Positions 60,404-62,513 of a stretch of 64,000 bases of DNA are shown piece by piece; the first letter of the stretch is position 1; the number at the start of each line of letters is the position of its first letter. The DNA is from a phage. The notes beneath the pieces are model-generated. The model was given only the letters and a program-made list of their open reading frames with translations, did not search any database and was not told the origin of the DNA. Both the position numbers and the translations under genes were made by a program. Where the stretch lies: the NCBI GenBank assembly GCA_033580375.1, contig GCA_033580375.1_4527.1; one strand, written 5' to 3'.

Positions 60404-60967
60404 TTATTTACCTAGTTTAGTTATTATAGCTTCGGCAGCAGCTTTTAGCTTAGATGCAGTGTTAATACGATTTTTAATTTCAGTATACGCATCGCCAAGA
60501 ACATCAAGGCTATCAGAATAAACACTTACACTATTGCGTTCGCTATTTGAAATAGAACCTTTAGTTTTACGATCAAAATCAGTGTACACGTCTTGAAGAT
60601 CACGGGCTGCCTTCTTTGCATCATCCAATGCATCAAGAGCTTTATTCAAAGCATTGACATATTTTTTAGTGTCAAACATATTCTTAGAAATTTTAACAGG
60701 TGCACGTTCAGGAGTAGCTAAGGCGGATTTAGGAACCTGCGTGCCAGATGCCAGTTTCTTAGAAATTTTGAAAAACGCTTTATTGAAACTATTTTCTTGA
60801 CTCATCGTAAAAGAACTAGTATCGATGTTATACATTTCAATAGCTTTAGCTTTCCACTTAAGAAAATCGCCACGGTCTTTTGGATCCAAGTTGAAGAATA
60901 CTTTAGTAAGATCTGCTTCAGATGGTAATTTTGCTGCTTCGGTTAAAAATTCGGCGTAGGTTTTCAT
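60404..60967 (-). CDS. internal-protein-like (CTS-bearing) protein
   Basis: 187 aa; N-terminal MKTYAEFLTEA. Confidence 0.55.
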   Translation of the reverse strand: MKTYAEFLTEAAKLPSEADLTKVFFNLDPKDRGDFLKWKAKAIEMYNIDTSSFTMSQENSFNKAFFKISKKLASGTQVPKSALATPERAPVKISKNMFDTKKYVNALNKALDALDDAKKAARDLQDVYTDFDRKTKGSISNSERNSVSVYSDSLDVLGDAYTEIKNRINTASKLKAAAEAIITKLGK

Positions 60968-61056
60968 TTAAAATCCTTGAAATAATTTATCGGTTGGTTA
61001 TTAATTATTTATTACTTTGGTATTATCAGTAACAGCATTCTCTGAGAGATTCAAAC

Positions 61057-61085
61057 TAAAAAGCCCCAACCTTTCGGAAGGGGCT
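61057..61085 (-). terminator. rho-independent terminator (same hairpin as 44564..44592)
   Basis: AGCCCCAACCTTTCGGAAGGGGCT with A-run on plus = U-run on minus RNA. Confidence 0.6.
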
Positions 61086-61398
61086 AAGCCTTGCGGCGAC
61101 CTTGTCGGGGTTCCACCTGCTAAGGCAAGTGTTTGTACGAAACGCCGGGATTCGAACCCGGTTATTAAGCAGTTGACGCTACTCAATATTTTTAAAAGGC
61201 CATATCTCGACCATATCCGAACGTTCCGTCAAAAACGCTACTCGGCTTACGGCAAAGATATTTCCTCGAATCGATAATTCTGTGCGCCGTTTCTGCTGTG
61301 ATGTAAGGGGATATTAACGAATCATAAAGATTTATTAAGACCAGTCCTTACTCAGGGAACATCAGTCCGACGACTTGCCGGTAGCGACCCGGCTTCTC

Positions 61399-61743
61399 TT
61401 ATTTTGGCATATCATCAATTTGCTCTCTACGCCGACGCCATAGATTAATCGCTTCATAGGCACATTCTGCGTTTGGTATATGACGGCAATAATATAATGA
61501 TTCACGTTTCTGAAACCGATGTTGCAATGGGATTTCGTTTAAAAGGTCTTTACGATCAAAGTATTCAAAACTAGTTAACCCTGAACGGTTTTTAATGAAC
61601 TTCCAATGACCGAATTCATTTTGAACATAGATGTAATCAGCGTGTTGATAAAGTGAATTAATCAATCGGTCTGAAATAACTGTATCATGTTCGTTAAAAT
61701 AAAACGTTAAATCATGAACTACTAAATAGACATTACCTTTCAT
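61399..61743 (-). CDS. hypothetical protein (start trimmed so it does not overlap tRNA-Arg)
   Basis: ATG at 61743 with GAGGA SD; track ORF start 61791 would overlap the tRNA. Confidence 0.45.
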   Translation of the reverse strand: MKGNVYLVVHDLTFYFNEHDTVISDRLINSLYQHADYIYVQNEFGHWKFIKNRSGLTSFEYFDRKDLLNEIPLQHRFQKRESLYYCRHIPNAECAYEAINLWRRRREQIDDMPK

Positions 61744-61761
61744 ATTTTCCTCACTTATAAT

Positions 61762-61838
<77 letters not shown>

Positions 61839-61918: not shown

Positions 61919-61997
61919 TAAATAACTTTCTATTATGAAAGGCACTTTAGAGCACCTTTGGTAATAGAGGGTATGAGTTAATAATAACACATAATTC

Positions 61998-62513
61998 TTA
62001 AAGCAAATCAATCATTTTAACAGTCGGCAAAACGATTTCTTCTTCAATATAAGCAAATTCAACACATTCAACTACACGCAAGAAATCATAATCATAATAT
62101 TCAGAAGCATAGCCAAGAATATCAATGAGACCTTCTGATACTAAATATCCATTCTCACGGAACAGGTCAAATACACGTGATTCATCTTCTTCAGATTTAT
62201 TACCGAGGTCGACTTCAATATCAAAGACCTTTTTAATGAATTCTGGATAAAGCTGGTCTGAGAACAATCCTTCAACCAAGTATTCATAGATTAAAAGCGA
62301 GCAATCACTGAATGGTGTATTACCACAGTAACGTTCAGCTTTAGTGCTAGAATGACGACTCTTAAATTTCTTCAAAAGATATTTAAACTGTTGGAGCTCA
62401 TGCTCTTCCACTTCAAACAATGTTTTGGTTTTATAGTTGTCACCATCATTTTCATAGGTAGTGACATCAATTACATAACCCTTAGGAATTGTACTGCCTA
62501 AACAAATATTCAT
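61998..62513 (-). CDS. hypothetical protein
   Basis: 171-aa acidic ORF. Confidence 0.5.
   Translation of the reverse strand: MNICLGSTIPKGYVIDVTTYENDGDNYKTKTLFEVEEHELQQFKYLLKKFKSRHSSTKAERYCGNTPFSDCSLLIYEYLVEGLFSDQLYPEFIKKVFDIEVDLGNKSEEDESRVFDLFRENGYLVSEGLIDILGYASEYYDYDFLRVVECVEFAYIEEEIVLPTVKMIDLL

Follow-up and report, generated by a model that had tools for sequence, protein, structure and literature searches.

A GC-rich stretch behind the tRNA genes of an RB69-like phage encodes orthologs of the T4 small stable RNAs, RNA D and RNA C

We analysed a 64,000-nt stretch of phage DNA (the window; GenBank assembly GCA_033580375.1, contig GCA_033580375.1_4527.1), which comes from an RB69-like T4-type phage, and focused on the segment at 61090-61400, where a first-pass annotation made from the letters alone had noticed a perfect tRNA T-arm and had proposed either a tRNA in decay or some other type of stable RNA. 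The latter option is the one that holds. We consider it almost certain that the minus strand of this GC-rich stretch of ~300 nt specifies a pair of non-coding RNAs orthologous to RNA D (gene rnaD) and RNA C (gene rnaC) of bacteriophage T4, and that RNA C adopts the fold described below. The locus is a known pair of RNA genes and no decayed tRNA; it is the RB69-type copy of two T4 RNAs, an ordinary genome feature that will not surprise a T4 specialist. The whole explanation favoured here, which joins identity and fold with proposed steps of maturation and action, we regard as probable.

The identity rests on colinearity and sequence conservation with T4. A blastn search of a phage collection showed that the locus is 97-98.5% identical to phiE142, phiC120 and RB69, and that the region occurs in 806 phage records, some of which annotate rnaC. 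In the T4 record (NC_000866), two misc_RNA features lie at the colinear position downstream of tRNA-Arg, namely rnaD ("species 2 RNA", 71053-71171) and rnaC ("species 1 RNA", 70908-71046), in agreement with the two small stable RNAs that the first-pass annotation had ascribed to T4 here. Minus-strand 61400..61058 aligns nearly base for base with T4 rnaD, rnaC, their 3' trailer and the terminator. Without gaps, rnaC is identical to its T4 counterpart at 137 of 139 positions (98.6%) and to that of RB69 at 138 of 139. Indeed, a 58-nt oligonucleotide, one of the two RNAC template oligos used for northern blotting of T4 RNA (PMC9697503), corresponds to window positions 61274..61217 with no mismatch. 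A covariance model of RNA C (R1) gave a single match in the window, at 148.9 bits, a high score as expected because the window was in the seed alignment. In the window-to-T4 comparison, identity is 92% over rnaD, rnaC and the trailer taken together but 69-86% in the flanking protein genes, which shows that the RNAs are the more strongly constrained. Moreover, rnaC is the last gene of the tRNA operon, lies on the strand of the other operon genes and precedes the conserved trailer and terminator; as in T4, 6 nt separate it from RNA D on its 5' side. In the RB69 reference record, the interval from ORF150c to ORF149c is blank, so both RNAs are omitted there. Rfam 15 has no family for RNA C or RNA D, and a scan of the region at the gathering thresholds yielded only the two upstream tRNAs. 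The first-pass annotation would have counted the lack of both a stable transcript and a covariance-model match against its proposal; curated Rfam models indeed give no match of adequate score for these two RNAs, which reflects a missing Rfam family rather than a missing gene.

The signals that had drawn attention to the segment were confirmed as real. The minus strand at 61161..61145 reads CCGGG TTCGAAT CCCGG, so the T-arm is present, 2 nt away from the position first given for it (about 61147..61163). The duplicated gagtagcgt motif was also verified: GAGTAGCGT occurs exactly twice in the 64-kb window, both times on the minus strand (61176-61184 and 61235-61243), where 0.27 copies are expected by chance and two matches were reached in 3 of 100 shuffles. 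The GC content is 0.43-0.47 across 61000-61400 and 0.33-0.38 in the flanking coding DNA, as had been remarked, and both ARAGORN and Rfam found only two tRNAs, the number counted before (Table 1).

The fold of RNA C is supported by comparison of its homologs. Position p of RNA C corresponds to window coordinate 61275-p. Pairs were counted in 29 distinct homologs from at least six phage genera, and an earlier set of 15 sequences agrees with the result. These homologs come from Tequatrovirus, Mosigvirus, Kagamiyamavirus (EcS1), Karamvirus (EnA02, AS6, KaAlpha), Kanagawavirus (Kosakonia phage 305) and Marfavirus (VAC36, PWKp18), and from IMG/VR and metagenome contigs, with identities down to 56%. 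The minimum-free-energy fold of the single sequence has an energy of -50.2 kcal/mol (z = -4.55), and the RNAalifold consensus, with compensatory changes at 23 of 41 pairs, is the same fold. Across the 29 sequences, 98.4% of the pair cells hold standard pairs and 27 of 46 pairs have changed on both sides. None of 500 shuffles matched these pairing values, and sliding the partners by 1-3 columns reduced pairing to 37-48%. The helices are kept by compensatory substitutions in homologs of only 56-60% overall identity.

In this fold the two ends of RNA C form a 7-bp acceptor-like stem (C2-G8 with C131-G137) that adjoins the T-arm. U5, U6, U133 and U134 are invariant and place a tandem U·U mismatch inside the stem, the pair A4-U135 becomes G4-C135 in 15 of the 29 homologs, and U138, at the discriminator position, is invariant. 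The first-pass annotation could build neither an acceptor nor a D or anticodon arm around the T-arm. There is indeed no tRNA-type D or anticodon arm, but the acceptor-like stem exists (61273..61267 with 61144..61138); it was overlooked because its strands are the two true ends of an RNA of 139 nt, so that the 5' strand lies ~130 nt upstream. The third pair of the T-arm is G-C in 14 homologs, U-A in 14 and A-U in one, and the T-loop always conforms to UUCRANY. Conserved in every homolog examined and with compensatory changes at this pair, the T-arm is no chance match. Compensatory changes were further found at 16 of 18 pairs in helices 3-5 of the long arm and at 8 of 9 counted pairs in the stem of hairpin 2. 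An A-rich linker joins the long-arm side to hairpin 2, and a single A stands between hairpin 2 and the T-arm. These data indicate that RNA C is a mimic of the "top half" of tRNA, in which the D and anticodon arms are replaced by a 3-bp stem carrying a 60-nt arm and, in addition, by a 10-bp hairpin.

RNA C has two loops that could pair with each other: UUGACG at the tip of the long arm (positions 43-48, coordinates 61232..61227) is the exact complement of CGUCAA in the hairpin 2 loop (positions 97-102, coordinates 61178..61173). The two loops read UUGACG/CGUCAA in 23 sequences and UUGGCG/CGCCAA in six, with no discordant case. This concerted change of A46G and U99C is the only one in otherwise invariant loops, whereas the surrounding stems vary, and its carriers are six distinct Marfavirus-type sequences (two named Marfavirus phages together with viral and metagenome contigs). 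From this pattern, the apical loops likely kiss via a 6-bp contact, a grade we do not raise because the co-variation rests on a single evolutionary event. The duplicated motif is partly explained by these elements. The second GAGTAGCGT copy spans positions 91-99 and its final bases belong to the conserved hairpin 2 loop, and the first copy (positions 32-40) forms part of the 5' strand of the long arm and is absent as a conserved element in distant homologs; the duplication is therefore specific to the T4/RB69 lineage.

RNA D differs more from its T4 counterpart: 98 of 121 positions are identical (81% overall) and the apical hairpin is rewritten, while the core segments AAGUCGUCGGACUGAUGUUCCCUG and AUCACAGCAGAAACGGCGCA are identical to T4. 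Its architecture comprises a 5' hairpin, identical to that of T4 and with compensatory changes among homologs, and a long irregular hairpin with an invariant internal-loop core of ~45 nt, in which AAGUCGUCGRACUGAnGUUCCCUG stands against AUCACAGCnGAAaCGGCGCA. The 5' hairpin and the variable apical stem co-vary (compensatory changes at 7 of 19 pairs), and the same architecture was predicted in five of six homologs. We infer that RNA D is an independent structured module, and the invariant pattern of its core suggests that it is probably a protein-binding platform. A hammerhead reading of its CUGAUG...GAAAC strands was rejected, as the junction is two-way only, the seventh core base is U/G instead of A and Rfam gives no match at E<=10; a K-turn in the same core would be speculative. 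Separately, the sole "terminator-like" match of a consensus scan in the region, at 61377-61393 on the plus strand, corresponds to the 5' hairpin of RNA D read in reverse complement, followed by a T-rich run, and is probably an opposite-strand artefact.

Both RNAs appear, at the sensitivity of our searches, to be phage-specific, occurring mostly in Straboviridae and in addition in Marfavirus and one Vequintavirinae phage. When 185,579 species genomes of bacteria and archaea were scanned with a pattern, 60 stretches were returned, and the nine that scored at all against R1 reached at most 25 bits; the best scorer was an ordinary tRNA-Cys and the others inspected were weak matches. No match was found by blastn in 5,426 complete Escherichia coli genomes, and pattern scans of metagenomes and IMG/VR revealed no divergent homologs beyond relatives of enterobacterial T4-like phages, where true matches scored >125 bits. 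Homologs of rnaD were found in T4-type and RB69-type phages, Dhakavirus (IME08, MX01), Marfavirus and the Vequintavirinae phage LTH01. In EcS1, EnA02, KaAlpha and AS6, rnaC lies inside tRNA arrays with 4-9-nt spacers on both sides, and such arrays of Karamvirus and Kagamiyamavirus phages hold rnaC without rnaD. Conversely, in Dhakavirus phages (MX01, stretch L035 697-816; IME08, L007 1197-1316) rnaD is fused to the T4-type post-rnaC trailer and rnaC is precisely absent. That rnaC occurs alone in some genera, and rnaD alone in Dhakavirus and in one Vequintavirinae phage, argues that the two RNAs have separate functions and do not form one two-part system. LTH01 carries an rnaD-like RNA directly after a tRNA-Met (L036 697-797); its invariant core is unchanged, its 5' hairpin co-varies and its apical stem is shorter. 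This occurrence outside Straboviridae suggests horizontal spread of rnaD as a module. MX01 also has a degenerate mini-copy of the rnaD core, ~45 nt, just upstream of the full copy (L035 650-696).

In the Mosigvirus AV115, tRNA-Arg, the ORF150c homolog, rnaD and most of rnaC are deleted, with the junction inside the T-loop. The "tRNA-Asn" annotated there (L112 651-722) is a chimera of an Asn-type 5' part and the rnaC 3' end, followed by the trailer and terminator, and the deletion looks as if it arose naturally through T-loop homology. Elsewhere, rnaC is annotated as tRNA-Lys(ttt) in G29 (L004 1365-1458) and as hypothetical coding sequences (CDSs) in AS6, VAC36 and Kosakonia phage 305, the record spans overlapping rnaC being L021 727-834, L019 817-954 and L008 1232-1360, with CDSs on differing strands.

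RNase P, 3' trimming exonucleases and the CCA-adding enzyme recognise an acceptor/T-arm minihelix. We therefore take the corresponding module of RNA C to be a putative handle by which host tRNA-maturation enzymes would excise the RNA from a polycistronic transcript and render it metabolically stable. Cleavage by RNase P would set the 5' end, and trimming from the 3' side would halt just past the stem. Excision and stabilisation of this kind are, on balance, likely. Conservation of RNA C starts at U1/C2 and stops at "CGU[A/C]CAA", which are the mature ends annotated in T4. In addition, the location in tRNA arrays with 4-9-nt spacers provides a tRNA-like processing context, and the CCA encoded in Marfavirus homologs, where the tail after the acceptor reads U-CCA, is the canonical tRNA 3' end. 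Once matured, the compact RNA C might mimic tRNA and bind protein, and so titrate or recruit a factor of host or phage that binds tRNA. RNA C would not decode, and action by antisense pairing is unlikely, but the positive proposal, that it serves as a tRNA mimic and protein ligand, we put forward only tentatively.

RNA C and RNA D were reported in the 1970s and, according to PMC4933390, no other small RNAs are known from a virulent phage; reviews call their function in T4 unknown (PMC3014915, PMC4933390). A dual RNA-seq study of T4 in 2022 detected both RNAC and RNAD as late-accumulating RNAs and reports validation by northern blotting with an RNAC probe; a discrete, stable RNA C transcript of ~140 nt has thereby been shown for T4 only (PMC9697503). 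Further, in a T4-like phage adapted to E. coli ECOR34, the only convergent mutation falls in rnaD (PMC12685909), a hint of a host-specific role. At its boldest, the proposal would make RNA C an uncatalogued class of phage tRNA "top-half" mimic, locked by its loops, that acts with RNA D as a host-specific effector of counter-defence or takeover. We think this unlikely. Were it true, RNA C could be a decoy or ligand for a tRNA-binding nuclease, sensor or maturation enzyme, the U-CCA lineages might have a CCA-tailed or aminoacylated RNA C, and the convergent rnaD mutation, having rescued a T4-like phage on ECOR34 (PMC12685909), would be the first phenotype of the system.

Two other accounts of function deserve consideration. 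RNA C, RNA D or both might be trans-acting small RNAs that base-pair with phage or host mRNAs, the tRNA-like part serving only for processing and stability. Both were named small regulatory RNAs, without a test, in the T4 study (PMC9697503), conserved single strands are available for pairing (GGCCUU and AAAAU in RNA C, GUUCCCUG in RNA D), and a single-nucleotide polymorphism in rnaD is the change tied to host adaptation (PMC12685909). However, the best-conserved loops of RNA C are the two that complement one another, which are therefore probably occupied within the molecule, and its other invariant single strands are short and lie at junctions, as is typical for tertiary structure. Neither RNA has a known target, and according to PMC3014915 no trans-acting RNA has been characterised in T4. 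We judge such regulation improbable. The second account, in which the RNAs act only in cis, as 3' processing punctuation or exonuclease protection for the tRNA operon and the mRNA of the ORF150c-like gene, appears to us quite improbable. It fits the position of both RNAs at the 3' end of the operon just ahead of the terminator, the usual location of RNA D directly after a tRNA (T4, IME08, LTH01) and the fact that some phages dispense with the RNAs. It does not fit Karamvirus and Kagamiyamavirus, in which rnaC lies in the middle of the array and not at its 3' terminus, and the invariant loops, tandem U·U and 45-nt invariant core exceed what a stability hairpin needs. Moreover, processed RNAs accumulate in T4 (PMC9697503).

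Several observations weigh against the explanation favoured here. The 3' tail of RNA C is U-ACA rather than U-CCA in both the window and T4. An alternative 8-bp acceptor (positions 46-53 with 131-138) can form in T4-type sequences, and there may be a conformational switch between the two acceptor pairings in these sequences. The loop complementarity, which rests on invariance and one event, could equally be intermolecular (dimerisation) or belong to an alternative fold. The folding energy of RNA D is unremarkable (z from -2.5 to +0.9), and its core, being invariant, is beyond covariation testing. Because Dhakavirus phages do without rnaC and AV115 without both RNAs, the function is therefore dispensable in at least some settings; T4 phages with deletions of the tRNA region are likewise viable. 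For this phage itself, the ends of the transcripts, cleavage by RNase P, modification of the T-loop and any partner protein are matters of inference.

The tRNA readings of the segment fare far worse. ARAGORN at default settings found no tRNA in the RNA C region, only the two upstream ones. In relaxed mode (-ps), it proposed a class-II cloverleaf of 95 nt spanning 61135-61229, in which the perfect T-arm is joined by a long variable arm and an 8-bp acceptor (ACGGAACG/CGUUUCGU), as well as intron-containing variants. The annotation of the same piece in phage G29 as a 94-nt tRNA-Lys(ttt), and an Rfam tRNA-Sec match of 16.6 bits on it, would accord with a genuine decoding tRNA of class II. Against this, the acceptor helix of the cloverleaf breaks down across homologs, and both the cloverleaf and its intron variants were rejected. 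The helix is only 85% paired and shows no compensatory change; in 10 of 15 sequences, U135C and G49A disrupt pair 49/135, and the double change seen (A4-U135 to G4-C135) instead restores the rival 5'-end pairing. Its D and anticodon stems are weak, the supposed anticodon loop differs in length among close relatives, and the mature T4 RNA is annotated as 139 nt and not ~95 nt. The score is far under the Rfam tRNA gathering threshold (29 bits), and RF00005 gave no match on 61136-61274 even at E<=10. A relaxed Rfam search of 60900-61800 (E<=10) found no fitting tRNA, transfer-messenger RNA (tmRNA), ribozyme or small RNA family, and the same-strand matches over the two RNAs at this cut-off were tRNA-Sec at 16.6 bits, where the threshold is 47, and ceN54 at 16.3 bits, each far short of its gathering score; the tRNA-Sec, isrK and ceN matches were dismissed as noise, the tRNA-Sec score being driven by the T-arm. 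tmRNA was also considered and rejected, as ARAGORN -m detected none in 61000-61500 and Rfam gave no tmRNA match. A class-II tRNA here is thus very improbable.

We give equally little credit to a tRNA pseudogene, that is, a T-arm left as a relic after the loss of most T4-type tRNAs. Such decay would suit the two tRNAs remaining here versus eight in T4, the lack of any tRNA covariance-model match at E<=10 and the blank ARAGORN default output. T4, however, carries the same sequence beside its full tRNA set, the rnaC sequence is more conserved (98.6%) than its neighbours (69-86%), its helices have been kept by compensatory substitutions (27 of 46 pairs) in homologs down to 56% identity, and the RNA is expressed in T4 (PMC9697503). 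The idea that the region is protein-coding, on 61017-61277 of the plus strand (86 aa) or 61001-61186 of the minus strand (61 aa), has practically nothing to commend it, for although both frames are in the open reading frame (ORF) list and the records of AS6, VAC36 and Kosakonia phage 305 have CDSs drawn across rnaC, both ORFs start with TTG, only TTG-start ORFs overlap the RNAs, the annotated CDSs differ in strand and frame between phages, the substitutions are patterned as paired RNA helices, and the curated T4 annotation gives RNAs.

On the minus strand, the order of the transcription unit is tRNA(CAT), tRNA-Arg, a 114-aa ORF, RNA D, a 6-nt spacer, RNA C, the trailer and the terminator (Table 1). 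The tRNA with the CAT anticodon is 95% identical to a T4 gene annotated as tRNA-Ile (T4 71960-72033) and is probably a CAU isoleucine tRNA that needs lysidine modification, so that the label "Met" may mislead. The stop codon of the 114-aa ORF overlaps the first nucleotide of RNA D. This ORF has no Pfam match, and Pfam and PHROGs assign no known function to the neighbouring ORFs. The terminator consists of a hairpin at 61084..61063 and a U tract at 61062..61058 on the minus strand, and phages PhAPEC2 and G29 have terminators annotated at the homologous sites; a simple terminator scan missed 61084..61058 because the stem has U·U mismatches. Upstream of the tRNA genes, a MotA-box-like TTTGCTTTA lies at 62007..61999, followed after 12 nt by TATTAT at 61986..61981 (minus strand). 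The surrounding segment 61970-62017 matches T4 72589-72636, which closely precedes the tRNA cluster of T4, at 90% identity, and the site is a plausible middle promoter for the tRNA, RNA D and RNA C unit. No T4 late-promoter box (TATAAATA) was found near the locus. In T4, transcription of the tRNA cluster is believed to yield a single ~1.75-kb precursor whose end lies beyond the species I gene (PMC2330249). In phiE142, phiC120 and many other T4-type phages, an extra CDS of ~465 nt lies between the rnaC terminator and the next gene (phiE142 stretch L003 1941-2405); it is absent from the window (compared over 60968-61057) and from RB69. Because of this intervening CDS, the matches to a 451-nt query fall, in many records, into two parts separated by ~550 bp.

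Table 1 Features of the rnaD-rnaC locus in the 64,000-nt window (positions within RNA C are numbered from its 5' end)
Feature	Coordinates	Strand	Basis
tRNA, CAT anticodon	61845-61918	-	ARAGORN (tRNA-Met) and Rfam
tRNA-Arg, TCT anticodon	61762-61838	-	ARAGORN and Rfam
114-aa ORF, RB69ORF150c homolog, phrog_3355	61399..61743	-	ORF list, RB69 annotation, PHROGs
RNA D ortholog (T4 rnaD, species 2 RNA, band D RNA), ~120 nt	61281..61400	-	Alignment with T4 71053-71171
RNA D 5' hairpin, 5-bp stem and 7-nt loop	61393..61377	-	Identical to T4; compensatory changes among homologs
RNA D long irregular hairpin, invariant core strands	61376..61353 and 61302..61283	-	Homolog alignment
RNA C ortholog (T4 rnaC, species 1 RNA, band C RNA), 139 nt	61136..61274	-	T4 homology, model R1, oligo match
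RNA C acceptor-like stem, 5' strand, positions 2-8, CGAUUCG	61267..61273	-	Minimum-free-energy fold, RNAalifold, pair counts
RNA C short 3-bp stem, AGG (positions 9-11) with CCU (positions 76-78)	Within RNA C	-	Fold and pair counts
RNA C long arm, positions 14-73 (60 nt), three stacked helices	61202..61261	-	Compensatory changes
RNA C hairpin 2, positions 87-112, ~10-bp stem	61163..61188	-	Compensatory changes
RNA C T-arm, positions 114-130, 5-bp stem and loop UUCGAAU	61145..61161	-	Sequence; all cells paired in 29 homologs
RNA C acceptor-like stem, 3' strand, positions 131-137, CGUUUCG, then U138 and A139	61138..61144	-	Pair counts
3' trailer and intrinsic terminator	61058..61135	-	Sequence; colinear with T4 trailer downstream of rnaC

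The residual interest of the locus lies in a question of function that is ~50 years old and in the structural hypotheses offered here, although the papers of the 1970s may already hold part of the RNA C fold. RNA C and RNA D are routinely missed or misannotated, and the alignments (A5, A4) and covariance model R1 could seed an Rfam family. In addition, the acceptor stem of the true ends, the tandem U·U, the co-varying loops and the invariant core of RNA D are offered as elements for mutation.

Compared with T4, RNA C is the same gene in the same position and on the same strand, with the same trailer and terminator, and only two substitutions apart. The operon differs in that two tRNAs and an inserted ORF are present here, whereas T4 has eight tRNAs and the homing endonuclease gene segB elsewhere in its tRNA cluster and has no counterpart of the 114-aa ORF. 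Correspondingly, RNA D directly follows tRNA-Arg in T4, but is separated from it by this ORF here, as in phage G29, and its 3' end is CACCA in T4 and CACAG here. RNA C resembles tRNA (RF00005) in its canonical UUCRANY T-arm, the adjoining 7-bp end-to-end stem, the U discriminator and its location in a tRNA operon, and in other genera it is placed between tRNA genes as tRNA genes themselves are. It differs from tRNA in its length of 139 nt, in having no D arm, anticodon arm or anticodon, in the tandem U·U of the acceptor and in a CCA that is not encoded. Likewise, as in the tRNA-like domain of tmRNA, both ends form an acceptor stem beside a T-arm and the remainder is inserted in place of the tRNA body, but RNA C is without the tag reading frame, pseudoknot ring, G3·U70 pair and GCCACCA end of tmRNA. 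No Rfam match at E<=10 was found to families of the MALAT1 mascRNA, gammaherpesvirus or YrlA type, and RNA C has no known sequence relation to these RNAs. The proposed handle of RNA C resembles MALAT1 mascRNA, the tRNA-like RNAs of gammaherpesvirus 68 and the bacterial Y-RNA-like YrlA RNAs in concept, in that recognition of a tRNA-shaped module by RNase P and tRNA enzymes serves to excise or stabilise a non-decoding RNA. The topology of YrlA is opposite to that of RNA C: the ends of YrlA make the Ro-binding stem and its tRNA-like acceptor is closed by a loop, whereas in RNA C the true ends of the molecule form the acceptor-like stem.

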